Source: Mobula hypostoma (Eukaryota). Taken from it: DNA of 64,000 bases. Both the position numbers and the translations under genes were made by a program. Shown here piece after piece: positions 29,903 to 61,859 of this stretch (the stretch's first letter is position 1; every line of letters starts with the position of its first letter). The notes beneath the pieces were generated by a model. It had not been told where the DNA came from and did no database searches. It worked only from the letters and a program-made list of their open reading frames with translations. The stretch lies in NCBI RefSeq assembly GCF_963921235.1, contig NC_086108.1:46440001-46504000 (forward strand), written 5' to 3'.

Positions 29903-30095
29903 ATCCACTTTATGTGTGGGATCTGTGACCAGCTGCCAACAGTAGAATTTTTTTTCATGGGGACTCACTGGCCCTTTCAACTTAGGATTCCCAGTGCAGT
30001 CAAAGTTGCACTCTGAGCAGTAGCTAAAGTTGCCAGAGGTTATGAACAGTTCGTAATCCCTGGGGAGTGAGTATACATTTCCTGACATTTCACTA
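29903..30095 (-). pseudogene. Decayed membrane-proximal CCP pseudo-exon (L)
   Basis: VKCQEMYTHSPGITNCS*P/GNFSYCSECNFDCTGNPKLKG../GSWSQIP; in-frame stop and frameshifts. Confidence 0.72.
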
Positions 30096-30357
30096 CCACA
30101 TTGTATTGCAAAGAACGGCAGCATTATGATTATAGTCTGTTACTAGTTATGGAAATGAGTACTTTTTTTAAGCAACTACTACTTCACAAAAATATTAAAG
30201 TAGGAGTTATACAATACAAATAACTATATGAAAAATCTTTTGCTATTTGTATCAAATGCCTTTTAAGAATGCTATCAAGTTAAGTTCAACACTCAATGGC
30301 GATCAGCTTGAATGGAGCAAACAGCGGTACTGTATGCCTACAACTCTGATGACTGTT

Positions 30358-30710
30358 CAGAAACATAGAAAATCTACAGCACATTACATGTTCTTCAGCC
30401 CACAATATTGTGCCAACCGTGTAACCTACTCTAGTAGCTGCCTAGAATTTCCCTACTGCACAGCCCTCTATTTTCCTAAGCTCCATACGCCTATCTGAGA
30501 GTCTCTTAAAAGATCCTATTGTATCCACCTCTACCACCTTCGTTGGCAGTGCATTCCAAGCACCCACTGGTCTCTGTGTGAAAAACTTACCTCTGACATC
30601 CCCCTTGTACCTACTTCCAAACATCTTAATACTATGCGCCCTCGTGTAGGCCACTTCAGCCCTGGGGAAAAAGCCTCTGGCTATCCACACGATAAATGCC
30701 TCTCATCCTT
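30358..30710 (-). mobile_element. CR1 LINE 3' end
   Basis: RGKFFTQR.VGAWNALP; same family as 35965-36670. Confidence 0.85.
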
Positions 30711-31044
30711 TCATTCCTTTCAAACAGAACTTTATGTTTAGACTGCAGAATCACGATTTTTATTCTATTTCTGCATAGTTAGAAAGTGCATTTATAACAA
30801 TGTTTTGCAATATTCTAAAGGGAACTTAATTGTGAATAATTATTGCTGAGGCAAGATCCCCACCCGATTTTGGGGAATTTTTATCATTTGCTTGATCTGA
30901 GTTTAATACTGTTGCTACAAGATTAGAAGGTGTTAGCTGGTTTCAATAACAATCCATTCTAAAAGTGAGCTCTGATAGTCCTTGGAAGCTACAGTTCTCC
31001 CCCCACCCCCCCGCCCATTTGTTCATTGGCAGGGTTCACTTCAA

Positions 31045-31555
31045 ACATTTGAAGAAGTTTGGCATGAGTCCCCAAGTACTAAGAACTTTCTACAGGGGCA
31101 CAATTGAGAGCATCCTGACTGGCTGCATCACTGCCTGGTATGGGAACCGTACTTCCCTCAATCGCAGGACTCTGCAGAGAGTGGTGCAGACAGCCCAATG
31201 CGTCTGTAGATGTGAACTTCACACTATTCAGGACATTTACAGAGACAGGTGCGTAAAAAGGGCTCGAAGGGTCATTGGAGACCCGAGTCACCCCAACCCC
31301 AAACTGTTCCAGCTGCTACCATCTGGGAAACGGTACCGCAGCATAAAAGCCAGGACCGACAGGCTCCGGGACAGCTTCCTCCACCAGGCCATCAGACTGA
31401 TTAATTCACGCTGATACAATTGTGTTTCTATGCTATATTGACTGTCCTTCTGTACATACTATTTATTACAAATTGCACCTTTAAACAGACGTAATGTAAA
31501 GATTTTTACTCAAGTATGTGAAGAATGTATGAAATAAAGTCAATTCAATTCAATC
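31045..31555 (+). mobile_element. Rex/Babar LINE 3' end
   Basis: FYRGTIESILTGCITAWYG..LLPSGKRYRSI; AATAAA plus (caatt)n tail. Confidence 0.88.
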
Positions 31556-32039
31556 ATCAATTGTGCAGTTCCAACGAGAAAGTGAAAGTTGTTGAACTGC
31601 ACCATGATCCTGTGATGAATACCCTCCCTGCTGTTTAATAGCAAGTTCAGGCATGATAACTAAGCAATCTCAGAGGAGTGACGTTATATCTCCAAAGGAA
31701 GAAGGTGTGTGTGTTGAGGTAACGGTGCAACTCAGAATGTCACCATGTGTCTCAATCCAGATAATGAAGGCCATGGGTTTAGGAAGGTCTTGTTGAAATA
31801 AATCTTGGCAGTGTGTTGCATCTTGTAGATGGCACACATTGTATCCAATGTTGGTGATGGAGGAGTGAATGTTTAAGCATAAGAATGGTCACTTTAAAAG
31901 CAGTTTAAAAATAGATAAATTTGCATTGTTGAAATTCAAATCTACCTTTTGATTGAACTGTACAATGAATATGCAAGAGGAGGGATTGAGAGGAAGGTGG
32001 ATGTCATGACCAGTAAGAACGGGTAGGAGCATGGTAATA

Positions 32040-34790
32040 GACACAATGGGATGAATAGTTTGAAATGCGTGTATTTTAATGCTGCAAGTATTATGGGTAA
32101 AGGTGATGAATTTAGAGCATGGATCAGTACATGGAACTATGAGGTTGTGACCATTACAGAGACTTGGTTGAGAGAGGAACAGGAATGGGTCCTCAATATC
32201 ACAGGGTTTTGAAGTTTTAGAAAAGTTCGAGGAGGAGGTAAAAAGAGATGGGGAAGTGGACTACTAGTCAGGGACAATATCACAGCTGCACACAGAGGGG
32301 ACATAATAGAGGACTCACCCACTGAGTCTACTTGGATAGAATTTAAAAAAAAATAGGAAAGATAAAATCACTCTGATGTGATCTACAGATCTCCATTTAG
32401 CCACAGGATATCAAGGAACAGATATGCAGGCAGATTAGGGAAAGATATAAAAACAACAGGCCTTGTTCTAGGTAATTTCAACTTGCCTAATATAGACTGA
32501 GACATCGTTAGTGTAGGAGGTTTAGATGGAGCAGATAGTCTAACAAGAAGAGATGTCATACTGGGCCTGGTATTGGAGAATAAGCCTTGCCAAGTAACTG
32601 ACCTCTTCAGTGGGTGGAACAGAGATTACAATTCCTTAAGTTTTAAGATACCTATAGGCAAGGTCTGAATTTGGAGCTGGACAAATTATGAGAGCATTAA
32701 GCAGGAACTAGGGACTGTAAATGGGGAACAGCTGTTATTGAGTATGTCCTCATCTGGCATGTGGGGGATGTTTAAAGACCAACTGCACAGAATACAGGGT
32801 GGATGTGTTCCCTCAAGAAGGAAGGACAAGGGTGGCAAGGTAAGGGAACTGTGGATGTTGAGAGAGGTGGTGAATTTAGTTATGAAGGAAACAGAAATGT
32901 ATGTAAGGTTTAGGAAGGTAAAATCAAACATAACCGTTGAGGATCATTAAAAAGCTAGGAAAAAAACTCAAGAAGGGAATTAGGAAAGCCAGGAGAGATC
33001 ATGGGAAGTCCTTGGCAAGAGGATTAAACAGAATCCCAAGACATTCTATATAGATGTTAAGAGCAACAGTACAAATAGGAAGAGGGTAGGACCACTCAAA
33101 GATAAGGAGGGAACATGCTGACACAAGGATGTGTATTAAATGAGTACTTTGCATTGGTATTTACCAAGGAAAAGGACATGGAGGATAGGGAGATCAGTGT
33201 GGAGTGTACTAAATTGCTGGGGCATTTTGAGATAAAGAAGAATGTAAAGTTGCGTCTCGTAAAGAACATTAAGGTGGATAAGTCCTGATGTGATATATCC
33301 CAGGTTATTGAGAGGGGTAAGCGATAAGATTGCTGGTGCCATGACCAATATCTTTGTATCCTCTCTAGCTACTGCCAAAGGCCCAGAGCTCTTCTAATAA
33401 GCAAATGTTATTCTACTATTCAAGAAGGGAACAGGTATTATCTTGGAAACAGTTGATCGGTGAGTCTTACATCAGTGATAGGGAAAGTACTGGTAAAGAT
33501 TCTCAGGGATAGAATTTATCAATATTTGGCCTCATTAGGGGCAGTCTATGGCCAGTTGTGTCTTACAAACCTGATTAAGTTTTAAGGAGATAATGAACGT
33601 GTTTGATGATGGATGTTGTCAACATGGATTTTAGTAAGGCATCTGACAAGATCCTCAATTAAGACTCATCCAAAAGATGAAGATGCGTGGGATCCACATT
33701 GAATCAGCCATTTGGATTCAGTATCAGTTTGCCCATAGTAGAGAGCAGGTAGTGGTCGATGGGACTTTTTCTGGCTGGAGGCTGAGATTAGTGGTGTTCT
33801 GTGGGGATCAGTACTGTTTGTAATATAGTTAAATTACCTGGATAAAAACATAGATAGGTGAGTTGTAAGCTTGCAGACATTATGAAGATTGGTAGTGTTG
33901 TGGCTAATACAGACTGACAAAGGATATAGTGGGATAAAGCTCAGTTGCAGATATGGTCGGACAAATAGCAGCTGGAGTTTCAGCTGTTCAGATGCGAAGT
34001 GCCGAGTTTTGGGAGATCAAACTTAAAGAAAGAGTACACTTAGTGGCAAGACCATTAACTGCATTGATGTGCAGAGAGATCTTGGGGTCCAAGTCCTTAA
34101 CTCCCTAAAAGTAGCTACTTAGGGTTGTAAAGAACGCATATGGCATGCTTGCCTTTATAAGTTAAGGAACTGAATTCAGGAGTTGGGAAGTTATGTTGTA
34201 ACCTTATAAAAGTCTAGTTTGGCCACATCTGGACTACTGCATTCAGTTCCGGTCACCCCGTCATTAGGAAAAACGTCGAGGCTTTGGATAGAATGTGAAA
34301 AGGTTTACCAGGCTGCTGTCTGGATCAGAAGGTGAATGTTATAAGGGTAGGCTGGACAAACTTGGGTTGTTTTGACCGGCACAGCAGAGGGGAGATCTGA
34401 TAGAATTTATAAGATTATGAGTGGCACAGATACAGTAGACAGCCAATATCTTCTGATTACAGGGTTAAAACGTCCAATACCAGAGGCCATGCGTTTAAAG
34501 TGAGAGAGGCTAAGTTCAAAGGAGGTGCACAGGTCAGGTTTTTTTTTATATACAATCATAGAAAGTAATGGGTACCTGGAATGTCTGGGATGGTTGTGAA
34601 GACAAATGCAATCCAGGTATTCTGGAGGCTCTCGGGTAGACACATGAATGTGCAAGAAACATGAGGATACAGGCATCTCACAGATAGAAGAGGTTAGTTT
34701 AGTTGGGCATTTGATTACTAATTAATTAGTTCAGCACAACATTGGGGACCTAAGGGGCTGTTCGGGTTCTGGACTAGTTCTGTGATTCAT
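32040..34790 (+). mobile_element. Decayed CR1 LINE ORF2 (endonuclease through RT and 3' UTR)
   Basis: LKCVYFNA.SI..K.DE..VVTITETW start; later VWPHLDYCIQF and GDLIEFIRL remnants; many stops. Confidence 0.85.
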
Positions 34791-35300
34791 CTTTTTAATA
34801 CAATTATCATGTTAGATAATGTAAGCATGAATATTTGTCTTTCAAATAATCCATGCTATAGATTTTTGTCAGTAGTAGAGGACAGACCAGTTGGTAATAG
34901 TATTGTTGTGAGTAATAAGCCATTAATTAGACAAAACTAAAAGCCTCGGTTATGTCCATTTCAAAGTACTTTGCATAGTTACAGGGGGAACAGCACCTTG
35001 TACTACCCCTGTAACAAACTGTTAATTAAGATATTTATTATTTTCTAGAACAAAAGCATGAGCAGCTTAATTGCCAGATTAAGGATATGAGGTATAAAGC
35101 CTGATGCAATCTAATTTCCCTTCCGTCTCTTGGAAAAGGTATGTCCCAACTCACAGGTGGATCTAATGATTAACCTTAGGAACAATTTGCTTCATTTGTC
35201 TTCCTAAAAAAGCATTTGTACAAAAATATTTTAAAAGATTCAAAGCAAAATGACTAAAAACAATTTTTTGGATTTGGGTAGTCAAAAGGAAATCAACTAC

Positions 35301-35486
35301 CTTTGCAAAATGGCAACGTATTTGTCCAGTTTCCTGAGTTTGTACATTCGATTTCTACTGCTCGTTTCAAAACAGAACCTTCCAGACAGCTCACTTCACA
35401 CTTTGAACTGTAACTAAACTTTCCGAACGGATGGGTGCAGTTCATCGAGACATAATCTGGTGTCTTCAGTGCATCACATTTCACAG
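35301..35486 (-). CDS. Selectin membrane-proximal sushi/CCP exon (K)
   Basis: 186 bp, ttttccAG/GT bounded; VKCDALKTPDYVSMNCTHPFGKFSYSSKCEVSCLEGSVLKRAVEIECTNSGNWTNTLPFCK; six Cys. Confidence 0.9.
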
Positions 35487-35964
35487 CTGGAAAAATGCAG
35501 ACCTCTATTAGTTGTTTTGTGTGACAGCCCTTATTAGGAAATCTCCACTGATGATTATATTGCAGTACCTTATTATTAACAGATTTCCTATTCAATTCAC
35601 ATCATTTCAATCACACTTCCATTTCATTAACATGAAAATTATTGGAGAAATACTTAAACATAATGTATATTTTTGGAATAAAATAAAAGTGTTAAATCCA
35701 AGAAGATGGTTCATTTTTATACAAGGATTTTCTTCTCAACAGATGCCATCAATATGCGCTGTTCACAGCAATAAGACAACTGGCAAAGAAAGGAGGCTCA
35801 GTCTCCTGAAAACCAGAGACACTTGTGAGTGAAGTGCTCCTCTTTGTACCTCTCATTGTTCACTCCTCCTTATTGGGAATAACTTGAAATCCATCCATAA
35901 AGCTGATTATTGCAAATCAGTTACCTTATATCATTGCAAATCACTACAAATGAGACCTGCCATA

Positions 35965-36670
35965 ATAGAAACAGAAACATAAAAAGCATATAAATCTACA
36001 GCACATTACAGGCCCGTTGGCCCACAATGTTGTGCCGACCATGTAGCTACTTTAGAAGCTGCCTAGAACTTCCCTACCCCATAGCCCTCTATTTTTCTAA
36101 GCTCCATGTACCTATCTAAGAGTCTCTTAAAAGACCCTATTGTATCTGCTTCCACCACTGCCACTGGCAGTGCATTCTACGCATCCACCACTCTGTGTGT
36201 GAAAAACTTACCTTTGACATCCCCCTTGTACCTACATCCAAGCACCTTAAGACTATGCCCTCTTATGTTAGTTATTTCAGCCCTGGGGAAAACCCTCTGG
36301 CTATCCACACGATCAATGTCCCTCATCATCTTATACACCTCTATCAGGTCACCTCTCATCCTCCATGGCTCCAAGGAGAAAAAGCCAAGTTCACTCAACC
36401 TATTCTCACAAGGTATGCCCTCCAATCCAGGCAACATCCTTGTAAATCTCCTCTGCACTCTCTCTATAGTATCCACATTCTTCCTGTAGTGAGGTGACCA
36501 GAATTGAACATTCTCCAAGTGGGGTCTAACTAAGGTCTTTAATAACTGTAACATTACCTCATGACTCTGGAACTCAATCCCACAGTTGATGAAGGCCAAC
36601 ACACCATACGCCTTCTTAACAACACTGTTAACCTGCACAGCAGCTTTGAGTGTCCTATGGACACGGACCC
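35965..36670 (-). mobile_element. CR1 LINE 3' fragment
   Basis: VKKAYGVLAFI..LVRPHLE..RVQRRFTRMLPG..MRGDLIEVYK. Confidence 0.9.
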
Positions 36671-37176
36671 TAACATCTAGCTGATTTGTTTTTCACAGGA
36701 ACCTTGGCAATATTTGGAAACACCACATTAGGACAAATGGTCATCAATATTCGTCTAGTTCGCTTCAATTTTGTAAAAGAACAAACTCCCAATCTCTGAG
36801 GTTGCACTTGGATAATCTCGAAAAAGTATGTCAAACTGTGATGATAATCACAACTACAGCATTCTCCCTCTCCCCCTTCTATCCCCCTACCCCCCAGCAG
36901 CAGCACTACCATTAAACTTCCTGAATCACCTCATTTCAATTTCCCAGTATTATACTTTCAACTTATTTCTTTCTCAGCAGAATTTGTTTTCATATTATCT
37001 GAGACCTCTGCAACTGTCCTAATAATAGATCCAGTCTTAATCATAAATCCGCCCAGCACGACCAATGCTATGTATTGTCCAGAGGCTGATTAAAATATTT
37101 TTAAAAGCTTGGCAGTTATATATGGCTTTTCACCTCCCATTTGTAAATTTAGGCACTTTTGCCTTACGTACAAATA

Positions 37177-37436
37177 CAACAAAACTCCATTAACTACCAG
37201 GCTAAGAACAGTGGGGTGCCAGAATGGCATCTTTTTCCACACTATTAGAATATTTTCCAATTATTACTCTAACATTTTAATTCACTTTAACATTGTAACA
37301 CAGCACTGTCTAAATGAAGAATGGGAATTGTGAATCTCTGTGTTAGACAGAGCATAGGAATCAGCACCCAATGAGCCAAATGCTGAATCATCAGGATTTC
37401 TGAATAATCTGATAGCAGATTATCAGAGTTTTGCTG
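37177..37436. mobile_element. Possible Tigger/pogo-like MITE relic
   Basis: TA-caacaaaactc ... gagttttgctg imperfect TIRs. Confidence 0.4.
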
Positions 37437-41933: not shown

Positions 41934-43060
41934 CACAAAATCACACAAGACAAAGGAGCAGAAGTAGGCCATTTGGCCCATCGAGTCTGCTCCGCAGCTC
42001 CCCATGAGCTAAACTATTCATCGATCTAGTTCCAATTTCCGGCTTTTTCCCCATATCCCTTGATACCCTGACTAATTAGATACCTGTCAATCTCCTCCTT
42101 AAACACCCTCAATGATCGGGCCTCCACAGCCGTATGTGGCAATGAATTCCACAAATCCATGACCCTCTGGCTAAAATAATTTCTCCTCGTCACTGTTTTA
42201 ACTGGGTACCCACTAATTCCAAGACTATGGCCTCTTGTCCTGGACTCACCCACCAAGGGAAACAACCTTTCCACATCTACTCTGTCCAACCCTTTCAACA
42301 TTCGAAACGTTTCTATGAGATCCCCTCTCATTCTTCTATACTCTAATGAATACAATCCAAGAGCCGACAGACGCTCCTCATATGTTAGCCCCTGCATTCC
42401 AGGAATCATCCTCGTAAATCTTCTCTGAACTCTTTCCAACATCAGTATATCCTTTCTAAGATAGGGGGCCCAAAACTGCACACAGTATTCCAAATGAGGT
42501 CTCACTAATGCCCCATACAGCCTCATCAACACCTCCTTACTCTTATACACTATTCCTCTTGAAATGAATGCCAACATAGCATTCACTTTCCTTACCACCA
42601 ATCCAACTTGGTGGTTAACCTTTAGGGTATCTTGCACGAGGACCCCCAAGTCCCTTTGCACTTCTGATTTTTGAATTTTCTCCCCATCTAAATAATAATC
42701 TGCCCGATTATTTCTTCTTCCGAAATGTACAACCATACATTTGTCAACGTTGTATCTCATCTGCCATTTCTTTGCCCACTCTCCTAAACTGACTAAGTCT
42801 CTCTGCAACCTTTCCGTTTCTTCAACATTTCCTGCTCCTCCACCTATCTTGGTGTCATCCGCAAACTTGGCCACAAAACCATTTAATCCATAATCCAAAT
42901 CATCGATATACATTGTAAAAAGAAGCGGCCCCAACACCGACCCCTGCGGAACACCACTAGTAACCGGCAACCAATCAGAATAGGATCCCTTTATTCCCAC
43001 CCTTTGCTTTCTGCCTATCAGCCAATGCTCCACCCATTTCAATATCTTTCCCATAATTCC
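41934..43060 (-). mobile_element. 5'-truncated CR1 LINE with uninterrupted RT C-terminal ORF, inserted into Gypsy pol
   Basis: [30 protein letters not shown] open to the stop at 42026; the Gypsy RT reading resumes on both sides. Confidence 0.93.
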
Positions 43061-44879
43061 ATGGGCTGTCAGGATCTGTGATGATTTTAAAGTCACCCTC
43101 AACCCAGTACTGAAAGTTGATCAAGTCCCTCTGCCCGGGATAGAGGATATCTTTGAAAACCTTCCTGGAGGAAAACACTTCAGCAAAATGTATTTAACTG
43201 AGGCCTACCTCGTGGAGATGGAAGAAGAGTCCAAAGTGTTTCTCACCATAAACTCTCACAAGGGGCTTTATTGCTGTAATAGGCCTAGTTTTTGACTAGC
43301 ATCTGCAGTACATTCTGGCAGAAAGCTATGGACCAGATACTGCAAGACTGCCGAGCCACTCAGTGTTACCTGGAGGACATCATTGTTACCAGTGAGGATG
43401 ACAAGGAACATCTCCAATATCTCAAGACAATTAACAAGATTAGAAGATTTTGGGCCCAGGGCCCAAAGTAACAAGTGTGACTTCTTTAAACCAAGCATCT
43501 CCTACGGTGGTCACACCATTGACACTCAAGCATTACATAGGTGTACTGACAAGATCCAAGCAGTGGTGAATGCCCCAAGGCCAAATGATGCATCACAGTT
43601 GTGCTCCTTCTTAGGGTTTGTTAATTACTGTAACAGGTTCCTGCCAAACCAGGCTTTTGAGCTCCACCCTTTGAACTCATTGCCATTTCTTCCTGAATTG
43701 TAGTAATGGACAAAGCAGTGTGCGGTGGTTCTCTAAAAGACAAAGGAAGTGCTGATGCACACACTGTACTTGCACGTTATGAACATCGTCCACTGAAGCT
43801 TGCCTGAGATGCCTCGCCTTATGGTACAGGTGTAGTCATGTCACATGTTATGAGTGAGGAAAGTGAATGTCCCATAACCTTTGCATCATATTTCCTTATT
43901 GCGGCAGAGAAAAGTTACACATGGATTAACAGAGAGGATTTGGGTGTAAAATGTTTCAACCAGTACTTGTATGGGAGAGAGTTTACCCTCACTACTGATC
44001 ATCTACCTCTAGTGTCCATTTTCAATCAGCAGAAGCCTGAATCAGAGATGGGCTCTGTTTCTTGGGGGACACAATCACAAGGTTGAATTCAAGAGGACAT
44101 CTAATCATGGAAATGCTGATGGATTGTCCTGTTTACCCTTGGAAAATGAAATGCTTGAAAATTTACAAAAGAGGACACTCCTCTTGACGTATTATTCTGA
44201 ATGCAAGTTGAAAATTTCTCTATTATGGCAGAGATGATCCAAAATCCCACACTGTCTCAGGCCTGCATGGCCACCCAAAGTGGCAGAAAGGTGCAGCAGA
44301 AATTCCAGTTTTTCCATTTTTACCAACATCATCATGAAATTGCCCTTGACGGGGGTTGCCTTAAGTGGGAATTGAGAGCTGTAGTATGTACCATCCAAGC
44401 TGAGAACTAAAGTGTTGGAGGAGCTACTGTACGTGGTCAACCATACACGTTCAAAATAAAAACGCTGGCTCGAAGCTTTGTCTGGTGCCCTGGGATAGAT
44501 CAGATTGACCAGCTTGTAATGCATTGTTTAGGATGCCTATACATCTAGAAGATGCCAAGAGCAACATCTCTCTATTCCTGAGAATGGCCTGCATTGCCCT
44601 GGCAGAAGATCCATGTCGATTTTGCTAAATCATTCAGAGCCACTTCCAGGGTCTTGTAACCACCATGGAGAAGGCCCAAATCCTGAGATTGTTTCACAAC
44701 CTCAAGCCTCGCCTTTCAAGCAGAGTGACACCCCCGCCCCACACCTCCTCATCAGAAAGACTATGTCCCGCGTGAGTGAGAAATCCGCCACAGCGGTTAA
44801 ATCTCTATGCCTGAAAGTGACAATTTAAAATTTATTTAGCTGTGGGTATCTATATAGTAGTTGTATTAGAGTATACAGT

Positions 44880-45960: not shown

Positions 45961-46519
45961 GGTGGCCCCATTACAGAACTACCTATCCCTCAGTCAGCTC
46001 ATTTTGGCTCATTAAAGATTCCAAAGCACAGCTCTGTATTTTCACTATCCACTTAATAACCAGAGTAAAAGGAGAAATAGACACAGGAAGAAAATCCTAA
46101 ATGTCACAAAAATTGCTTAAAAGAATTACCAATTAAGTTATTTTGTCTGGTATTAAAGTGAGGGCTGGGGTGGGGGAGGTGGAAGGCTCAATATACAGTA
46201 TATGACATTGCATAATTAATGCCTATTCTTGGAGCTTGCGCTATCCGTTGTCCACCAAAGCCTGCCCGACTCCCAGTATAAACTATTCAATACAACTAAA
46301 GCCATGTGTTGAGCTATATGGGAAGTCTGCAGTAAGGTGGGAGATGTTCATTGACCTTGCTAAGAGTGTGTGGGTGCCCATCTGGTTGGGTGGATACAGC
46401 ATGCATTTATTCTGGTATGTGTGTCACTTCACAAGCCAGATTAGGAAAGAGTACAGCAAATATAACTTAACAGAAATAAGAAATTTTAAAATGTTCAAGT
46501 GATTTTGTGTGATGCGCCT

Positions 46520-46690
46520 CATTACTCTGCTGTCCACTGTCCATTGCCCTGACACTGTTTGACTCTCACAGTGCAAACCCTACCGCACAGCTGAAGCTTG
46601 CCTGTGGAACTGTAATGGAAGTCTTTAATACGATGGGAACATTTCATTGCCCCTTTCACTGGCACCCTCAAAACATGCTATATAGTTGAC
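46520..46690 (-). pseudogene. Decayed CCP pseudo-exon (J)
   Basis: VPVKGAMKCSHRIKDFHYSST../FSCAVGFAL../QCQGNGQWTAE*; frameshifts and stop. Confidence 0.75.
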
Positions 46691-46974
46691 AGGCAAGAGC
46701 ATGATTTCAACTTTTTTTTTCCTAGTCACAGGCACAGTATATACATGCGTTAATTTATGTATCATAAAGAATGTGAAGAATTTAAATTTACAAGTGAGAA
46801 TTTATTAAGTAAATGATAGTTAAAGTAGAGACGTTCTCGGTTCATTGGTACACAATGGTTATCCAGAATTTTTAAACCAATGTTGTCTCATATTAAGTTG
46901 TAAATGAAGTTTCAATCAGTGGTTCTCTGCTGATTTTCAGTTGATTTGAGCAAATGACTAATATTGTTATTTTG

Positions 46975-47606: not shown

Positions 47607-47790
47607 ATTTGCATTTGGTGATTTGGGCCAACCACTGTCCATTAGCTTGACACTGTAACCTGTCCAACCCACTCAGAGTAAACCCATTGCACCCCGATAA
47701 TCACATGTTGAGCTATAGCTGAAATTTCCAATGGAATGACGGCAGTTCATTGTCCCTTGTTTCAGGTTTTCAGTTTTGGACACCTTATGG
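47607..47790 (-). pseudogene. Frameshifted CCP pseudo-exon (I)
   Basis: 184 bp between AG and GT (two 1-bp deletions relative to 186); IRCPKL../KQGTMNCRHSIGNFSYSSTCDY../TLSGLDRLQCQANGQWLAQITKCK. Confidence 0.82.
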
Positions 47791-47809
47791 CTGGAATGCA
47801 AGATGTTAA

Positions 47810-47944
47810 GCACATCTAACCCTTGCGGTACAGACTCTTCTGTGGAGTCAAAGATGCATGCTGAGCTGTAACTGAAGTTTCTAATGGGATGGATACAGTT
47901 CATCATCCCTTGTTCTGGTTGTGTTATCACCTGGCAGGTTACAT
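47810..47944 (-). pseudogene. Truncated CCP pseudo-exon (H; D/E type)
   Basis: AG acceptor then VTCQVITQPEQGMMNCIHPIRNFSYSSACIFDSTEESVPQGLDVL; fourth Cys lost, 3' third and donor deleted. Confidence 0.8.
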
Positions 47945-48090
47945 CTGAAATGTCACTTTGACTTTCACCACTCAATTGTGAATACACAGCATACTATTTT
48001 GAATGAACGAGCATAAGTAACTATAGTTATAGAAACTGAAAGTTTTATATAAGAGTTCAATAGCTAGCTTTGTTTTGATAAACACAATAC

Positions 48091-48276
48091 CTCTACATGT
48101 GGGCTTTTCTGCTGTCCACCGACCAGAGGCTCTGCATTCAAGTCTGTGTGATCCCATTAACGTGAACCCCTCAGCACAGCTGAAGTCGCATGTTGAGTTG
48201 AAACTGAAGCTTCCGATGGGATGGGAACAGTTCATTGCACCGTGTTCAGGTTGCATCATTTTCTCGCAGATTAGAA
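48091..48276 (-). CDS. Selectin sushi/CCP exon (G)
   Basis: 186 bp, AG/GT bounded; LICEKMMQPEHGAMNCSHPIGSFSFNSTCDFSCAEGFTLMGSHRLECRASGRWTAEKPTCR; 115-bp intron separates it from exon F. Confidence 0.92.
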
Positions 48277-48391
48277 CTGTAAGAGAAGAGTAGTATTTTC
48301 TCAGCTTTAAATTTTGCAGATATAATACCAATATTTTATAGGAAATTTTAATATAATTGAAGGCTAATGTTAAAATGAAGTTTTCTAGTAC

Positions 48392-48577
48392 CTTCACAGT
48401 TGGGGTTTTGTGCAGTCCATTGCCCATTGCTTTGACACTGTAGATTTTTTGACCCTTTCAGTGCAAACCCTTCAACACAGCTGAAGTCACACATTGAGCT
48501 ATAACTGAAGTCCCCAATAGGATGTGAGCAGTTCATCGCCCCATTTTCAGGGTCTGTCAATATTTGACAAGATGCAG
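48392..48577 (-). CDS. Selectin sushi/CCP exon (F)
   Basis: 186 bp, AG/GT bounded; ASCQILTDPENGAMNCSHPIGDFSYSSMCDFSCVEGFALKGSKNLQCQSNGQWTAQNPNCE; paralogue of exon A. Confidence 0.92.
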
Positions 48578-48746
48578 CTAAAATATAGAATTTAAATTCC
48601 TTTAGCATTTGGAAAAATAAGTAAGGCATGGCATATTCATGAATTTGTAATATGTATAATATCAAAAAGCAAATCAGCAACAAGAATCTAACATCTGTTA
48701 TTATTAACAAACATCCAAAGTTAAGACAGGGTAATTAGCTTAGTAC

Positions 48747-48932
48747 CTTTACAGTTGGGAATGGGTGCTGTCCATTGTCCATTGGCTTCACACTGAAGCA
48801 CTTCTGACCCCTGCAGCAGAAATCCTTCTGTGCAGTCAAAGGAGCACGTTGAGCTGTAGCTGAAGTCTCCGATGGGATGGGTGCAGTTTACTATCCCTCG
48901 TTCTGGCTGTGTTATTGTCTGGCAGGTTACAG
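48747..48932 (-). CDS. Selectin sushi/CCP exon (E)
   Basis: 186 bp, AG/GT bounded; VTCQTITQPERGIVNCTHPIGDFSYSSTCSFDCTEGFLLQGSEVLQCEANGQWTAPIPNCK (3 aa differ from exon D). Confidence 0.92.
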
Positions 48933-49090: not shown

Positions 49091-49142
49091 ATCCACATGT
49101 GGGCATTTTTGCTGTCTACAGTCCAGAAGCTCTACATTCAAC
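49091..49142 (-). pseudogene. 3' fragment of a deleted CCP exon (paralogue of exon C)
   Basis: Matches the ECRASGRWTAE.PTC-coding end of exons C/G; flanking intron 49170-49400 resembles 54340-54560. Confidence 0.7.
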
Positions 49143-50334
49143 TCCTATCACCAAAACAGCTTCATGATCATGTTAAGCAAAATTGCAAATCCATCCAAAG
49201 GGACTGATGATTTGAACATTTATCTTCCAGCACACATGCTTCTCTACCATCTCCAAGATTTATTACTCATATTCTGATCCTCAATCTTCACCAAATAATA
49301 TTCTCCCAATCTTAATGAGAATTGCTTATGCAAAGTGTTTTTGGTCACAAGCCAAGGCATTGAAGGTGCTAAAGTGCTTTCGTCTAAGAAGGTATTATTT
49401 AAATTAAGGAAGTATTATATTAATGTAATTTGCCTTCTGACTAAAGAGATGGAGTTATTAATTAAAGAAGAAAGTAGGCATAATTTGAATGTGTTCTTGT
49501 ATTTCTTAAATCTTTATTTAAGAAAATAACGTTCCTACTACTGTCTCTTTAATCTGACAGCAGTTATAAGGATCCTGCACTGACCTGACCTTCCACGGGA
49601 CCTGTGAAAACAGCCTCACATTAAAATACTGGATGAAAACCATTATGTATTCCATAGAAAATATTATCATCTTGTTAAGGCAATGATATAGATGACTTGG
49701 TAAGTTACAAAATATCAAACGCAGTGAGTTTAATCTGCTGATGCTTGTGCTTTGTTGCTCACTGAGCAAGATGTTAAGTGTGAGAAAGTTGTTTTTGGGG
49801 TACTTATTGCTTGGATTTTGTCATCAATGTGGTGTCAAAATGTTACAGAGTTTTTCCAGTGGTTGAGAATCAACTTCACAAAGCGCTACCAACAGATCTG
49901 CCAAATTCCTTGCATACATGTTTACAAATGAAATTAAATATGGGGAGGGATGATAATCCTGGAGAATGCATTGCAGCTGCAGTACACAGCGACAGTGTGA
50001 ACATTTGCAGACAATTCCCATGACTAAATGTAGGCAATATTAATTAGATCAGAATCTTCCCAAAAATAAAAATTCAAAAACAATAAGTAACATAAGAGGT
50101 AAAGATTAAAAAGTTCAGTTTGCCTTAGATTAATAGGTGATTTTGTATTCAAAATTTCCAGAATCATCCACCACAAATCATTTTGCTGACCTTATTTCAT
50201 AGAGTCATAGAACATTACAGCTGAGAAACTGGCCATTTGGCCCATCTAGTCTGTGCCAAACCATTAATCTGCCTAGGCCCATTGATCTGTACCGGGTTCG
50301 TAGCCCCCCATATCCCTTGCACTCATGTATTGAA

Positions 50335-52620: not shown

Positions 52621-52806
52621 CTTTACAGTTGGGAATGGGTGCTGTCCATTGTCCATTGGCTTCACACTGAAGCACTTCTGACCCCTGCAGCAGAAACCCT
52701 TCTGTGCAGTCAAAGCTGCAGGTTGAGCTGTAACTGAAGTCTCCAAAGGGATGGGTGCAGTTTACCATCCCTCGTGTTGGCTGTGTTATTGTCTGGCAGG
52801 TTACAG
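52621..52806 (-). CDS. Selectin sushi/CCP exon (D)
   Basis: 186 bp, AG/GT bounded; VTCQTITQPTRGMVNCTHPFGDFSYSSTCSFDCTEGFLLQGSEVLQCEANGQWTAPIPNCK. Confidence 0.92.
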
Positions 52807-52894
52807 CTGAAATACAATTTGGATTTCACCATTCAATTTTCAATACACAGAATATTATTTTTAAGGAATGGGCATAAATAACTATCGTTATAAA

Positions 52895-53707: not shown

Positions 53708-53776
53708 GAAATTGAAAGTGTTATAGAAGAGTTGAACGCATATCACAAGCTCGATTTCCTTTGATGAATACAATAC

Positions 53777-53962
53777 CTCTACAGGTGGGTATTTCTGCTG
53801 TCCAACGTCCAGAGGCTCTACATTCAAGTCTGTGTGATCCCATTAATGTGAACCCTTCAGCACAGCTAAAATCACACCACGACCGGTAACCGAAGTGATC
53901 GATGGGATGGGTGCAGTTATAGGTTCCTCTGTCTGGACTTCTCAGCATGTCACATTTCATGG
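53777..53962 (-). CDS. Selectin sushi/CCP exon (C)
   Basis: 186 bp, AG/GT bounded; MKCDMLRSPDRGTYNCTHPIDHFGYRSWCDFSCAEGFTLMGSHRLECRASGRWTAEIPTCR. Confidence 0.92.
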
Positions 53963-54609
53963 CTGAAACATTAGTGATAGTATTCTCATTGATTCTGTTA
54001 ACGTGCATATCACCTGATTTTTCTTGATTTCTAACATGCCAAATAGTAGAAGGGACAGAAGGACGAATTTCTTAACATCAACGGTTGAAAATAATTGGAA
54101 TCCATTGTCCCCAGAAAACTTGCAGATGATTATCAGCTCTGTGATTTTAAGGCTGCAGTTATGGGCACGCAGGAATCAGGGGATGTGGACTTCCACTGGA
54201 ATAATCACCCATGCTCTTACTGAATGCAGAGCAGATGTGAAGAGCGGAGTAGCCACTCTTGTTCCTATTTGTTATTTATCCATACTTCATTTTAATCACT
54301 TCTTCCTCTCTTCCCACCAAAAATACTTTGCGATGTCATACTAAGCAAAATTGCAAATCCATCCAAAAGAAAAGGATTGATGATTTGAAGACATTTTCCA
54401 TTATCTCCAGTATTTTTTTTTGGGTGTTCTGATCCTCATTCTTCACTTAAATATTATCATCAAAGAGTTGATCACATCCCAATCTTATAAAATTGCTTAT
54501 GCAAATTGCTTTTGTTCATAACTGATGACATTGAAGGTGCTCAGATGTTCCAGCCCGATTTAGTATTATATACAGCAGAAGCAACTTGTCATATGATAAC
54601 AGAGCTTTA

Positions 54610-55400
54610 TAATTTTGAAAGATAAGAGTAAATTGGATGTGATCTCAACTATGCATCTGGGGAAGGATGTGAGTAGTGATGTATATAGTCCATCTCTTTT
54701 TCAGCCTCTTCAGAAAGTAGAGGTGTTGGTGAACTGTGGAGGATGTGTTCTGTGACCATGAGAGGTTGTACAAGATGAGCACTGACAGGAGTTCAAAACT
54801 GCTCACAGATTCCACTGCTGTGCAGCCAAAGTGGTGGTGGTTGGGGGTGGTGAGTGTGTAGGTTTTCCTGAAGTTAATAACCATCCCTTTGGCTTGTTGA
54901 CATTGAGCAAGAGATTGTTTGCCTGGCACCAGGCCTTGAGCTCTTCCACCTCCCCTCTGTAGGCCATCTCATTGTTGATGGTGATGAGTCTCACCACTGT
55001 TGTGTCATTGGCAAACTTGATAATGTGGTTGCTTGGATGTTTGTCTGTGCAGTCATATGTGAGCAGTGTGTACAACAGGGGACTCAGCACACAGTCCTGG
55101 GGGGCACTCATGTTGGATGGTGGGGAGGAAGGAGTGGTTGTGCATCCTAACAATCTGAGGTCTGTTGGTTAGCAAGTCCAACACATTGGGTATTTAGATT
55201 GAAGAGTAGGAGTCTGTTCAAAGTCTGTGGGAAAGTAGAGTTGAATGCCGAACTGAAGTTCAGAAACAGCATTCTGAAAGAAGTGTCTGTTTTCTGGGCT
55301 AGGTGTATGACAGACACTATGGCATCTTTGTAGAGTGGTTCTGATGGTAAGTGTATTGGTGAGTGCCCAGAGTAGCAGGAATGTACTCATCATTATGTTT
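54610..55400 (-). mobile_element. Rex/Babar LINE RT fragment
   Basis: APQDCVLSPLLYTLLTYDC..IIKFANDTTVV..WCQANNLLLNV. Confidence 0.85.
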
Positions 55401-55479
55401 CTGTTTTGTTTTACTGAGTTCTTAAATCATTTTTCTGACCTTATTTCTGACAATCTATTGATGGAGGTTGTTTAAAAAT

Positions 55480-55636
55480 TGGCATGACGCAGTAGCCTGT
55501 TTGACCCACTCAATATATGGTATAAATTCCCTTCCTCAGAGATAAAGTTGCATGTTGAGCTGTAACTAAAGTATCAAGGGATGGGAGCCATTCATTTCTT
55601 CCTGTTCAATCTTTATCGGTTTTGGGCAACTTATGA
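55480..55636 (-). pseudogene. Decayed selectin CCP pseudo-exon
   Basis: Remnant ISCPK...MN.SHP..FSYSSTCNF..EEG...LSGSNRL; acceptor AG changed to AT; indels and a truncated 3' end. Confidence 0.75.
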
Positions 55637-55666
55637 ATGGAATGCAAGATTTTAGGTTAGAATTAG

Positions 55667-56419
55667 AAATATGTTACGGAGCTGATTCGTGCGGAAATTT
55701 CAACCTCTGTTACGGAGCTGATTCGTGCGGAAATTTCAATTAATTTCCAGAAAATTGCCGATTCAATCGATAAGATACAAACATCTATTACGGAACATCA
55801 GTCGGCTATATCTGATCTTCAAAAATCCACGCAACAAAGTGAGCTTAAGATGGGGAAAATCGAAGAAACAATTAATGTAATGAAGAAGAAACTTGACTTT
55901 CTGACCTTTAAAAACTCTGACTTAGAATCTAGAATGCGACGGCAGAATCTACGAATGATCGGGGTGCGTGAAGCTGTTGAATCTGATAACCCTATGAAGT
56001 ATTTTTCTCAACTTTTAAAAGATGCATTTCCTACTGTATTTCCTGACCAACCACCGCTATTGGATCGCGTTCACAGAGTTCCATCATACTCGCCTAGGTC
56101 AGATAAACCTAGACATGTCATTTTACGGTTTCATTACTTTCAAGACAAGGAGAAACTGTTTCGATTCGTTCGATCTAAAGGTTTCATTGGTTTTTTGGAT
56201 CTTAAGTTCCGATTCGTGGAAGATTTCAGTAAACCAATCCGGGATCAACGGGTTCGTTACAGATCTGTGATGTCGGAACTCTACAAGATGGATTTAAAAC
56301 CAGCGCTGCTTTACCCTGCACGTCTAAGGATTTGTACGCTGGATGGAGCCCTCCGTTTTTTTGACTCTCCATCGGATGCCCAGAGTTATCTGGATCAATT
56401 TTCACCTTCAACATCGTAA
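55667..56419 (+). CDS. L1 ORF1p (N-terminally truncated, open frame)
   Basis: Frame open from 55667 (VTELIRAEISTSVTELIRAEIS...) through coiled-coil, RRM and CTD motifs. Confidence 0.85.
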   Translation, partial: KYVTELIRAEISTSVTELIRAEISINFQKIADSIDKIQTSITEHQSAISDLQKSTQQSELKMGKIEETINVMKKKLDFLTFKNSDLESRMRRQNLRMIGVREAVESDNPMKYFSQLLKDAFPTVFPDQPPLLDRVHRVPSYSPRSDKPRHVILRFHYFQDKEKLFRFVRSKGFIGFLDLKFRFVEDFSKPIRDQRVRYRSVMSELYKMDLKPALLYPARLRICTLDGALRFFDSPSDAQSYLDQFSPSTS

Positions 56420-59400
56420 TTGTAATTTTTTAACTATCTCTGTTGATCGGAGGCTGTGAATTTGTCGGTCTTAATTTTTTTTTGCCCTATTTGGGCAGAA
56501 AAGTTTATTTTTGATTACTTAATATGGTTGCTAAACTTTCTTTTTAACTGCGTCATTTCTTTCTTTTTCCTAGGGGATTCTGGGTGGTTATTTCCTCATC
56601 GTCATTTTACGTATTTCCTTTGTGGCCTTAAATTTTGTAGTTTTTTTAAAAATCTATTTTGTTTTGTAGGTTTTTATAACTAGTTTATGTTAATAATCTC
56701 TTTTTTTTTGTTGTTTTGTTTATTCATGGGTCTGGGGTTTATTGCGGTTTTTTTAATATATTTTCTGACTTTTATTCTGTTATGTGTTTATTTTAATTGA
56801 GTTATTTTTTATTCTTTTACTGTTTTATAATCAGCTGATCTTTTTTATATTTACACTTTTTTTTAGGGAGCGTATACCGGAAGTCATGGGGTTAGTTTTA
56901 GTGCTTGCTTCTTTGGGGCTGGTCTGCGTTAGATTTAGCCTTGGGGTCATGGGGTGAGGGTGGTGGGAGGGGCTTCACGTTTTAGTTTTTTTCTTCTTGG
57001 GCTATATACATTATTGAAGTATTGGTTGCGTTCTTCTTCCCGGTATCTCTTGTATGTTCTGTTCCCTCTCCGGGTTCGTGGGTCGAGCCTATTGTCAATC
57101 CTCCTTGTTGTGGGTTGACTTTAGGGTTTATGGAGTCTATTATTAATTTTGTCTCCTGGAATACTAATGGTCTTAATCATCCTATTAAAAGGAAAAAAGT
57201 TTTTAAAGTGTTCCGGAGACTTAAAGCACAAATTTTATTCTTACAAGAGACCCATGTGCGGAGGGGGGGACAGTCTAAGTTTTTTTAAAATTCTGTAAGG
57301 GACAACAGTTTCATTCGAACTCCAATGCTAAGATTCGAGGCGTCTCTATTTTTATAGACTCCTCAGTTACTTTTATACAACATGATATTATTTCTGATCC
57401 GAATGGTAGATTTCTATTGGTTAGTGGTTTACTATTTAATAAAAAAGTAGTTTTGGTTAATGTTTATGCTCCTAATATGGACTGTCCGGAATTTTATAAA
57501 TCATTATTTAATCAGTTTCCGAATTTGAATGAGTTTTCATTCATCTGGGGCGGAGATCTTAATACCTGTTTGTCTCCAGCTTTGGACCGTTTGGCTCCTT
57601 TACGGACCTTACCTAATAAATCTGCAACTTTGATTAATTCATTCCTTTCTGATTCTGGGTCGACGGACATTTGGCACTTTTTGCATCCTCAGGAAAAAGA
57701 TTTTTCTTTTTTTTCCACATGTTCATCATTCCTATTCAAGAATTGATTATTTCTTTATTGATTCTCGTCTTATTTCCTCAGTGATTAAATGTGATTATGA
57801 CTCTATAACCATTTCGGATCATGCTCCACTTAAGCTTTCTATTAAAATTCTGGCCAATATACAAAATAATAGACAATGGCGTTTTAATTCGCTGTTGCTT
57901 CAGGACTCGGACTTTGTTAACTTTATGAATGAACAGATTGAGCTTTTTTTTACAATTAACCATACAGAGGATATTTCTGTTAACACTCTTTGGGACACTT
58001 TTAAAGCTTATATTCGTGGTCAGATTATCTCGTATTCTGCTGCTTTGAGGAAGAAGCAGAAGCAGGAGGAGTTGGTAATTGTGGACAAGATTAAGGAAAT
58101 TGATAAGAAATATGTTATAGCTCCTTCTGAGGAGTTATATAAACAAAGAACTGAACTTCAAATGGAACACAGTTTATTACTCTCGTCCTCGATTGTAAAC
58201 CAATTAAAGAAAACAAGAAGTGAATTTTATGTACACAGTGACAAAATTGGCAAACTGTTGGCTAATCAATTGAAGTCTAATTATGCTAAATCTCAAATTA
58301 ATCAGATTTATAACCAAAATGATTGACTGATACTTGATCATGTGGGGATTAATCAAACCTTCTGTGATTTTTACTCTTCCTTATATCAATCAGAGTCTCC
58401 TCGAGATTCTAAATATATGAATGATTTTTTAGATAATTTAGACTTCCCTGAGATTTCACAGGATATGGCTTCTATGTTAGATACTCCCATTACCATGGAT
58501 GAGATTAAGAATGTTATTTTCTCTATGAATTTGGGGAAAGCTCCTGGCCCTGATGGGTTTACCGTAGAATTTTATAAATGTTTTGCTCCTTCATTAATCC
58601 CTTGGCTCTGTAGGGTTTTTGAGGCTTCATTGAAACTTTGTAAACTTCCTGAATCTTTTAATAGAGCGTCAATTTCTTTAATATTAAAGAAGGATAAAGA
58701 TCCTGCTCAATGTGCATCTTATAGACCAATATCTTTATTAAATGTTGATTCTAAAGTTTTTTCTAAGTTATTAGCAAATAGATTAGAAAAAGTACTTCCC
58801 TCTATTATTTCAGAAGACCAAACGGGTTTTATTAAAGGTTGTTACTCTTTTTATAATATTCGTACACTGTTAAATATCGTTTATACTCCCTCACAAAATG
58901 TTCCTGAGTGTGTTATCTCTTTAGATGCCGAGAAAGCTTTTGATAGAGTAGAATGGCCTTATTTATTTAAGGTGCTTGAAATGTTTAATTTTAGCTCGAA
59001 ATTTATATCCTGGATTAAACTCTTATATTATTCTCCTGTGGCCTCGGTCCGTACTAACTCTTTAAGTTCACCTTTTTTCCCTCTTTTTCGAGGTACTCGA
59101 CAAGGCTGTCCTCTTAGTCCCTTATTATTTGATATTGCATTAGAACCTCTTGCAATTGCCATTCGGGAATCTCCAAATATTACTGGGATAACTCGGGGCT
59201 TAAAGTCCCATAAATTATCACTCTATGCTGATGATTTACTTTTATATATTTCTAATCCTCAAAAATCCATCTCGGCTGTTTTAGAGTTATTAGCACAATT
59301 TGGTCTTTTTTCAGGTTATAAATTAAATCTTAGTAAGAGTGAACTCTTTCCGATTAATAAACAACTTCCCTTATATTATAAATTTCCATTTAAATTGATT

Positions 59401-61252
59401 AATAATTATTTTTCATACCTTGGGATTAAAATTACTTGTAAATACAAAGATTTATTTAAGACTAACTTTGTACCATTAATAGACCATATTACTCAACTTT
59501 CATCTAAATGGTTTCCTTTATATTTAACTTTGGTCGTATTAATGCAGTTAAGATGTTTTTTTTGCCAAAATTTTTATATATGTTTCAGGCATTACCAATC
59601 TTTGTTCCAAAATCTTTTTTTGACAAAGTTGACTCTAAAATTTCTTCATTTATTTGGCAGAATAAAAACCCGAGACTGGGTAAAATACATTTACAGAAAG
59701 CTAAGAGAGATGGAGGCTTAGCATTACCTAACTTTAGATTTTATTATTGGGCAATTAATATTCGACATATGAAATTCTGGTTACTGGACCAGGATATACT
59801 ATCCATTCCTAAATGGGTAGTATTGGAATTACAATCTGTTCAGGGTTTTACACTTGGCTCTATTTTAGGTTCCTCTCTTCCTTTTGATTGGAAACGCCTT
59901 AAACAGGTGTCTAACCCGATAGTTAAATATATCTTGCGTATTTGGTTTCAATTCAGAAAATTTTTTGATCTTAATCAATTTGGGTTAGCGATTCCTATTT
60001 TAGGTAACATATTTTTTCCTCCCTCTTTTACGGATCGTGCTTTTCAAACTTGGAAGACTAAGGGTATTTCACGGTTTTTGGATTTATTTTTAGATGGTTC
60101 CCTTATGTCTTTTGAACAATTATCTAATAAATATAACTTATCAAGAATACATTTTTTTAGATATCTACAAGTTAGAGATTTCCTAAGTACTATACTTTCT
60201 TCCTTTCCGATGCTTCCTCCTACATACATTTTAGATACTATAATTAACCTTAATCCATGTCAGAAAGGTGCATCGGCTATGATTTATAATATTATTATGA
60301 AACTTAGGAAAGCTCCATTTGATAAGTTTAGGGTAGATTGGGAACAGGAATTGGGGTTTACCATTTCCGTGGATGACTGGGGGCAGATTTTACAATTAGT
60401 CAATACTTCCTCTATCTGTGCTAAACATTCCCTAATACAATTTAAAGTTGTTCATAGAGCACATATGTCCAAAGATAAGTTAGCGCGCTTTTATTCTCAT
60501 AGTAATCCTTTTTGTGATAGATGTCCGGGGCAGATAGCCTCTTTAACTCATATGTTTTGGTCTTGCCCTACTTTGGAAACTTTTTGGAGAGACATTTTTA
60601 ATATTATCTCCAAGGTATTGAATATAGATATCTCTCCACACCCTATTACTGCTATCTTTGGACTACCTAAAATTTCCAGTAATCTCTCCCCTTCAGCCCG
60701 TAGAATGATTGCATTTCTTACTTTAATGGCGAAAAGATGTATCTTACAACATTGGAAAGAGCTTAATGCTCCAACTACCTTTTTTTTGGTTTTCTCAGAC
60801 GATATTATGCTTGAATCTGGAGAAAATTAGAAACAATCTTTATGACTCATTTTAATTTGAACAGACTTGGAGATCTTTTATTCAATATTTTCATTTAATG
60901 TAATATATACCCTTCTTGTTTTTTTTTTACTGTTTTTAATGGAGGTCGGGTTTGAGGACGTGATTTTAAGTTTAACTCTGTTTGGTTTCAAGTTAGCCCA
61001 TTGCTTTGCTTTGCTTTTAGTTAGTTGCATGGTGGTTTTTTTTTGGGGGGGGGTTTCCTTTTCTCTATTGATATATATATATATAATTAGTATACTATTA
61101 TGTTACCTTGGTATGTTATGTTTAAATTACATTGTTTGTAGTATCTTTTTTGTATTAATATCTTCTGTAATTTTATTATATTCTAACAGTGTATTAGTGT
61201 CTATATGGCTTACCTTTTTGTATACTTATTTAATAAAAAGATTTAAAAAGAA
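55669..61252 (+). mobile_element. Near-full-length L1 LINE (5'-truncated within ORF1)
   Basis: ORF1 (DLESRMRRQNLR..DRVHR..PRHVILRF..LLYPARL), T-rich spacer, ORF2 APE-RT-CCHC, AATAAA/A-rich tail; TSD agaattagaa at 55659-55668 and 61253-61262. Confidence 0.96.
57130..60900 (+). pseudogene. L1 ORF2p (APE endonuclease, RT, CCHC), disrupted
   Basis: SWNTNGL, LQETH, NVYAPN, GGDLN, SDH, KAPGPDG, LDAEKAFD, GTRQGCPLSP, LYADD; a few frameshifts and a TGA at 58324. Confidence 0.92.
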
Positions 61253-61372
61253 AGAATTAGAAGTATGTACAATTGAATATATTCTAAAATAGTCTCAACT
61301 TTAAAGATGATCGAGTTATAACTATCATATTTTGCATATCATTTTAAACATTAACGCCGAATTCCTTAGTAC

Positions 61373-61558
61373 CTGTGCATTTGGGGCTCTGTGCTGTCCA
61401 CTGCCCATTAGCTTCACATTGTAAATGGTCTGAACCATTCAGTATAAACCCCTCAGCACAGCTGAAGTCGCATGTTGAGTTGAAACTGAAGTGTCCGATG
61501 GGATGGGAACAGTTCATTGCACCTTGTTCAGGTTGCACCAGTCTTGCACAGATTAGAA
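61373..61558 (-). CDS. Selectin sushi/CCP exon (B)
   Basis: 186 bp, AG/GT bounded; LICARLVQPEQGAMNCSHPIGHFSFNSTCDFSCAEGFILNGSDHLQCEANGQWTAQSPKCT; 115-bp intron separates it from exon A. Confidence 0.93.
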
Positions 61559-61673
61559 CTGAAGTACAAGAGTAGAATTTTCTCAGTCTTAAATTTTGCA
61601 GATATAATACCAATATTTTATTGCAAATTTTGATATAATTGAAGTCTAACATTAAAATGAAGTTTTCTTGTAC

Positions 61674-61859
61674 CTTCACAGTTGGGGTTTTGTGCAGTCC
61701 ATTGCCCATTGCTTTGACACTGCAGACTTTTTGACCCTTTCAGTGCAAACCCTTCAACACAGCTGAAGTCACACATTGAGCTATAACTGAAGTCCCCAAT
61801 AGGATGTGAGCAGTTCATCACCCCTTGTTCAGGGTCTGTCAGCGCCTGACAGGTTACAG
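61674..61859 (-). CDS. Selectin sushi/CCP exon (A), first in window
   Basis: 186 bp, AG/GT bounded, phase 1-1; VTCQALTDPEQGVMNCSHPIGDFSYSSMCDFSCVEGFALKGSKSLQCQSNGQWTAQNPNCE has the six-Cys selectin-type CCP pattern. Confidence 0.93.

Follow-up and report, generated by a model that had tools for sequence, protein, structure and literature searches.

Live and dead stalk exons in a Mobula hypostoma selectin gene: a probable history of cassette copying and in-place inactivation

The stretch analyzed here, a window of 64,000 nucleotides of Mobula hypostoma DNA (NCBI RefSeq assembly GCF_963921235.1, contig NC_086108.1, positions 46,440,001 to 46,504,000; positions below are counted within it), holds the 3' half of an annotated selectin gene. 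All stalk exons lie on the minus strand, the sole strand on which a six-frame motif scan of the window finds frames resembling complement control protein (CCP) domains. Eight intact exons encode CCP9 to CCP16 of the RefSeq P-selectin-like protein XP_062920053.1 (P0026), each matching at 61/61 residues, which bears out the proposal of the initial annotation that they belong to one selectin gene. This model is composed of a lectin domain (PF00059, residues 53-162), a single EGF domain after it (PF00008, residues 166-195), both encoded outside the window, and 16 CCPs; the further CCP exons that had been expected upstream number eight, CCP1-8. A protein search with the first exon returned 21 matches, all named selectin-like and 19 of them from cartilaginous fish.

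The six-Cys CCP is a hallmark of selectins. All eight exons encode six Cys and score above the Pfam Sushi cut-off, they stand in tandem, and they are followed by a single transmembrane (TM) exon and a short tail, such that the gene is a selectin by architecture. ‘P-selectin-like’ is kept here as the RefSeq name, with no assignment to mammalian P, E or L implied; isoforms of the Hypanus orthologue are called both P- and E-selectin-like by RefSeq. Because gene and stalk length are already annotated, what is gained here is evolutionary detail rather than a new system. Among 24 sequencing runs listed, four DNA runs from one sample contain 0.92-0.94 of the window's words and four from a second organism contain 0.49-0.54; no RNA run containing window words is among these 24, and the gene is presumably expressed.

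Each of the eight intact exons is exactly 186 bp long, bordered by AG and GT, in phase 1-1, open and with six Cys, precisely as first described. A DNA profile built from them and run over the window recovers seven further, decayed copies (d1-d7, numbered in the direction of the gene; Table 1), all within the gene and on its strand, with 26.3-87.5 bits and E values of 1e-7 or better. The next match falls to 4.9 bits; 20 locally shuffled windows reach 5.8 bits at best and the reversed window 2.8 bits, and a profile of all chondrichthyan CCPs reveals no more remnants in the window. The dead copies originally reported as at least six are thus real, and their number by the DNA profile is seven.

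The lesions differ from copy to copy. In d1 the acceptor AG has become AT, there is a 2-bp deletion and an insertion, and the 3' end is lost. Of d2 the last ~53 bp are left, with a stop and no donor, the acceptor and the 5' two thirds having been deleted; upstream of it, intron homology persists (49168-49370 versus 54336-54541). The acceptor of d3 is kept, one Cys is gone, and the exon is cut at nucleotide 137, where a deletion has fused it to the acceptor of d4, which retains both splice dinucleotides at a length of 184 bp and has a stop at codon 9. The acceptor of d5 is absent, and indels and stops have accumulated. In d7, GG stands at the acceptor position with an in-frame TAG 3 nt beyond it, a stop occupies codon 18, frameshifts are present and the last Cys is gone.

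Some of these exons might be regulated poison or truncating exons, for instance through read-through from d3 into d4, leading to transcript decay or a secreted selectin. The d3 acceptor and both d4 splice dinucleotides are indeed kept and the d3-d4 read-through is open for 89 codons, but dead exons appear in none of the five M. hypostoma models, and d3 has lost a Cys and shows a nonsynonymous divergence (dN) of 0.21, where the live pair compared across that span shows 0.06, so that a poison role is scarcely credible. The dN of d3 is 0.21-0.22 and its synonymous divergence (dS) 0.27-0.43, which is weak as dN/dS evidence.

What the dead exons once were has been approached by comparison with the skate Amblyraja, whose 15 distinct units are named here 1-6 A B C D F G E Y Z. 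Exons were typed by frameshift-aware alignment scores against skate units, and under this typing all eight live exons choose the expected Amblyraja unit, a control for the scoring of the dead ones. In addition, an all-domain tree was built by a quick search on 61 columns, with nine of the 22 species and d2 left out. In all three skates the best score of d1 and of d4 is with E, and both exons fall inside the skate E/F clade, with a support of 82 by the Shimodaira-Hasegawa-like approximate likelihood-ratio test (SH-aLRT). From its best matches d5 is probably of class G, with a small lead over the best non-G unit of 5, 6 and 14 points across the three skates. For d7, the top seven of 152 domains are all terminal units, and its lead with Z amounts to 28 points in Amblyraja and 38 in Rhinoraja, which marks it by similarity as a dead Z. 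At least three dead copies, judged in this manner, match unit types still live in skates or sharks, a link that the initial annotation had not made.

With dead units in square brackets, the genomic order reads 1-6 A B C D [E/F] A B [A] B C D:A [B] [E/F] [G?] [?] Y [Z] TM, in which the run d4-d5-d6 sits at the position of skate F-G-E, directly before Y. In predicted models, Z closes the stalk in 17 of 22 species, including sharks, a chimaera, skates and an electric ray, and in 17 of the 18 outside the Myliobatiformes, the exception being a truncated Leucoraja model that does not extend to the TM segment. It is absent from the models of all four myliobatiform species; no Z-like domain is found in 20 myliobatiform models, where the best candidates reach 32-35/61 against 45/61 for the true Narcine Z, and no live E/F or G type is present in any model of these four species. 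It could be argued that none of the dead copies ever coded in this lineage and that all arose as by-products of duplication, in which case the stalk has only grown. Type A d2 and type B d3 are truncated by deletion as this account expects; they look like clipped copies of live types and may never have worked, a possibility not raised in the initial annotation. Likewise d1 and d4 are paralogues, one of which was possibly copied already dead. As an explanation of all seven copies, however, the account is very unlikely: it is contradicted by d7, for which the gene contains no live paralogue and whose matching unit is found in 17 of 22 species models, and by the E/F and G types, for which the four myliobatiform species have no live copy.

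The live exons bear witness to gain. Self-comparison of the locus, which had been recommended as a check, shows that cassettes were duplicated together with their introns: CCP9-intron-CCP10 aligns with CCP14-intron-CCP15 (61370-61896 versus 48088-48614) at 87% over 527 bp. Nucleotides 1-93 of CCP15 match CCP10 at 84/93 and CCP11 at 49/93, whereas nucleotides 94-186 match CCP10 at 63/93 and CCP11 at 84/93; 3' of the exon follow an A-type intron and then a B-type remnant. This pattern reads as the mark of unequal crossing-over inside exons, and both the multi-exon cassette duplication and the crossover within an exon had escaped the initial annotation. False duplication in the assembly, one of the conditions under which the original claim was to be withdrawn, has been considered and rejected as a negligible possibility: the most similar copies are 5-7% divergent in their exons and 12-30% in their introns, the same unit order occurs in models of M. 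birostris, Hemitrygon and Hypanus, and no point in its support was found.

A second process has acted on the B units. Units 8, 12 and 13 have seven species-diagnostic and no position-diagnostic sites relative to Hemitrygon, and three and none relative to Hypanus; the A units are the reverse, with no species-diagnostic and 9-10 position-diagnostic sites. Across species, A and D units cluster by position and B units by species, with no signal for C. CCP12 and CCP13 differ by a dS of 0.11, yet their flanking introns are about 70% alike. The simplest reading is that gene conversion has probably taken place among B exons within species. Such concerted evolution of one unit type, which pure birth-and-death does not predict, was likewise overlooked at first.

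The chimeric CCP15 is also present in Hemitrygon and Hypanus models, so the D:A fusion predates the split between Mobula and stingrays. Moreover, the whole 16-unit order, chimera included, is common to M. hypostoma, Hemitrygon and Hypanus, and because it is shared with these two stingrays, the births and most of the deaths are old. Whether the stalk also behaves as an active accordion, with exons gained or lost now and length differing among haplotypes and close species, is a separate matter. CCP16 is absent from 7/7 M. birostris models, which have 15 units, and skipped in two of five M. hypostoma models; Scyliorhinus canicula and S. torazame reach 19 and 22 units with near-identical middle units; and middle units are skipped in models of most species examined. 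Nevertheless, the order is identical in three genera, the dead copies are at least 17% diverged from their nearest live relatives, and the interval 29.7-49.4 kb is free of exact repeats of at least 25 bp that could now promote unequal crossing-over. Read mis-mapping can produce skips where exons are near-identical, and middle-unit skipping in isoform models is not counted here as evidence of real splicing. We regard ongoing change as unlikely, and the suggestion that the stalk is length-variable is weakly supported in that sense, CCP16 being the one unit that looks unstable.

CCP16 is typed as Y by the tree (SH-aLRT 88) and by the Amblyraja ranking; mean similarity to shark Y units failed to single it out. 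Of all 16 units it ranks last in identity to Hypanus (46/61) and last but one in identity to Hemitrygon (50/61). At position 37, where 326 of 332 domains have Phe or Tyr, it alone has Ser, and Gly41 is replaced by Arg. Its absence from the M. birostris models, of which one further numbered isoform is unlisted, is absence from models and no proof of loss. CCP16 may be dying now in Mobula and may be the next exon to go.

Taken together, these observations make it likely that the back half of this long chondrichthyan selectin is a record in fossil exons of a stalk rebuilt by cassette copying and in-place inactivation. The batoid ancestor was probably Amblyraja-like, with the order 1-6 A B C D F G E Y Z. 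Before the Mobula/stingray split, the A-B-C-D cassette would have been copied several times by unequal crossing-over, one crossover inside exons giving the D:A chimera, and certain copies would have been truncated by deletion (d2, d3). Along this lineage, too, the run F-G-E and the terminal Z exon would have been silenced where they stood (d1, d4 and d7, with d5 and d6 as probable cases). Five gains and four losses of units would thus lead to 16, and the B-type exons would have been homogenized within species afterwards, probably by gene conversion. Since each unit is a 186-bp phase-1 exon, every step kept the frame; the initial idea that symmetric phase permits gain and loss in frame holds, and births and deaths have both occurred. 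Eight live and seven dead exons, along with lineage-specific unit orders, constitute a birth-and-death pattern.

Several points weigh against this history. The tree leaves d5, d6 and d7 unplaced; d1 and d4 score best with E though position suggests F; and d6 finds its best match in C in two of three skates and in E in the third. The cross-species data are predicted protein models throughout, such that ‘absent’ means absent from models. The C units are without diagnostic sites either way, and parallel re-duplication could mimic conversion of the B units. In the consulted text of a study of human P-selectin, rolling depends on stalk length, two or three repeats failing and six already equalling wild type (PMC2120654), which leaves a need for 16 unexplained. 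By analogy to human P-selectin, the stalk would serve as a spacer raising the lectin head above the glycocalyx, and the protein would reach an estimated 65-70 nm, scaled from the about 40 nm given for nine repeats in the sections consulted of PMC7355470.

In one long model per species from 22 species, chondrichthyan selectins contain 11-22 CCPs, with a median of 15.5 and 15 or 16 units in 14 of them. Sixteen units are therefore ordinary for sharks and rays and long only against mammals, and the expectation of an unusually long selectin is not borne out. Long models occur outside the group as well, with 13 CCPs in axolotl, 20 in a caecilian and 16 in a teleost. Across chondrichthyans, CCP1-6 and the two membrane-proximal units are position-specific, and the middle is remodelled in each lineage. 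In the two Scyliorhinus models (P0001, P0047), one unit has expanded to 9 and 11 near-identical copies, an amplification much more recent than that in Mobula.

Relative to an Amblyraja-like ancestor, Narcine has lost six units and gained six, Rhinoraja four and four, and the stingray lineage four and five. It is conceivable, though we hold it tentatively and think it rather doubtful, that stabilizing selection keeps the batoid stalk at a length near 15-16 units even as the units themselves are exchanged; on this reading, because the lost units are still in Mobula introns, gain and loss were separate events that cancelled. Against this stand the Leucoraja model, with its 19 or more units, and the range of 11-22 among sharks, and a permutation test of gains versus losses is not significant, with p 0.2 for five lineages and 0.08 without Leucoraja. 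If true, chondrichthyan selectins would offer a natural series for what sets selectin length.

Exon loss is usually inferred from absence, but here the lost units remain readable in introns and several of them can be matched to live skate and shark units, among them the membrane-proximal CCP that is elsewhere retained, from chimaera to electric ray. One gene displays symmetric-phase exon gain, chimera formation, homogenization and loss, and CCP16 is a candidate for an exon in the act of being lost. In the sections consulted, published accounts give 2-9 repeats for mammalian selectins (PMC7355470) and 10 for zebrafish E-selectin, with repeat number said to vary among species (PMC6331844) or described as ‘variable’ (PMC13358205); database models thus extend the range from 2-10 in print to 11-22. 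A literature search, outside which lay most subscription journals and supplements, found nothing on the number of repeats in chondrichthyan selectins or on dead exons in selectin genes, and the identity of the dead exons relative to live skate and shark units is the part for which no precedent was found in print.

Table 1. Features of the selectin gene and its surroundings in the window, in the direction of the gene
Feature	Positions	Strand	Basis
CCP9 exon, type C, intact	61674..61859	-	Sushi match; 61/61 to RefSeq; expected skate unit
CCP10 exon, type D, intact	61373..61558	-	Sushi match; 61/61 to RefSeq; expected skate unit
L1-type long interspersed nuclear element (LINE), ~5.6 kb, antisense, between CCP10 and d1	55667..61292 (ends approximate)	+	Open reading frames; Transposase_22, RVT_1 and zf-RVT matches
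d1, dead CCP exon, skate E/F class	55478..55636	-	54.5 bits (DNA profile); skate ranking; SH-aLRT 82
CCP11 exon, type A, intact	53777..53962	-	61/61 to RefSeq; expected skate unit
CCP12 exon, type B, intact	52621..52806	-	61/61 to RefSeq; expected skate unit
d2, 3' fragment of type A exon	49092..49144	-	76/92 nt to CCP11 and downstream intron
CCP13 exon, type B, intact	48747..48932	-	95% identical to CCP12
CCP14 exon, type C, intact	48392..48577	-	93% identical to CCP9
CCP15 exon, intact chimera	48091..48276	-	5' half type D, 3' half type A
d3, truncated type B exon	47808..47944	-	141/175 nt to CCP13; B clade SH-aLRT 95
d4, dead 184-bp CCP exon, skate E/F class, d1 paralogue	47607..47790	-	Skate ranking; tree
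d5, dead CCP exon, probably skate G class	46520..46692	-	Best match G in 3/3 skates
d6, heavily decayed CCP exon, type uncertain (E by position)	46228..46379	-	26.9 bits (DNA profile)
CCP16 exon, penultimate Y type, intact but degenerate	35301..35486	-	Y clade SH-aLRT 88
d7, predicted dead copy of terminal membrane-proximal CCP (Z)	29903..30095	-	Terminal-unit matches
Transmembrane exon, 123 bp	27558..27680	-	100% to P0026 residues 1194-1234; splice sites
Optional cytoplasmic exon, 114 bp	23751..23864	-	Only in model X1
Cytoplasmic exon, 34 bp	22595..22628	-	Match to RefSeq model; splice sites
Last coding exon	16750..16805	-	Stop codon, then donor site

At the 3' end of the gene, the models give three alternative cytoplasmic tails of 108, 70 and 55 residues past the last CCP, a set that M. 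hypostoma and M. birostris share with Hemitrygon. The TM exon begins with residues that differ sharply between the two Mobula species, M. birostris being closer to Hemitrygon, in contrast to the CCP exons, which are 57-61/61 identical between these two. The L1-type LINE is near full-length. It lies immediately upstream of d1 in the intron between CCP10 and CCP11, and at its 5' edge, near 55670-55750, a short stretch is duplicated; a relic 63% similar to it is found at 21005-21779, and further LINE remnants occur at 250-1824, 31.9-34.7 kb and 39-43 kb, with RVT_1 matches at 250-1821 and 42029-43120. A decayed long terminal repeat (LTR) retrotransposon occupies 7040-11344 on the minus strand, its LTRs (7040-7291 and 11093-11344) being 86.5% identical; its broken frames match DUF7041, RVT_1, RNase H and integrase, a domain order which we take to be Ty3/Gypsy-like.

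At the other end of the protein, the lectin-EGF region aligns gap-free to the human E-selectin structure 4c16. Six of eight adhesion residues (list of PMC6331844, renumbered to mature human) are kept, namely N82, N83, E92, Y94, K111 and K113, and the EPN and WND motifs are present. Tyr48 is replaced by His and Arg97 by Val. Among 22 long chondrichthyan selectins, 19 have His at position 48 and two, from skates, have Gln, with no case of a His shifted by one residue; Callorhinchus likewise has His, and three shorter or second shark selectins that were checked keep Tyr. The three skate proteins are without the EPN motif. These differences suggest that binding of sugar or calcium is altered.

Compared with known systems, XP_062920053.1 and its isoforms agree with the window in CCP9-16 and in the TM and tail exons, but as protein models they are without the seven dead exons. 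Human P-, E- and L-selectin have the same succession of lectin, EGF, CCP array, TM segment and tail, whereas Mobula differs in its 16 CCPs and in His for Tyr48 and Val for Arg97. Zebrafish E-selectin is likewise a fish selectin with more repeats than those of mammals, although its repeats number 10, and the text consulted of its description makes no mention of dead exons or of cartilaginous fish selectins (PMC6331844). The skate protein of Amblyraja (XP_032884022.1, P0073) is collinear with Mobula in units 1-10 and has live F, G, E, Y and Z; its 15 units are distinct and without a repeated cassette, and F, G, E and Z are those dead or missing in Mobula. Finally, the top PDB match by summed CCP similarity is CR1, whose long homologous repeats are the familiar case of CCP arrays altered by unequal crossing-over of multi-exon cassettes. 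CR1, however, is built of four-Cys CCPs and has living length alleles, whereas the Mobula selectin is a six-Cys array.

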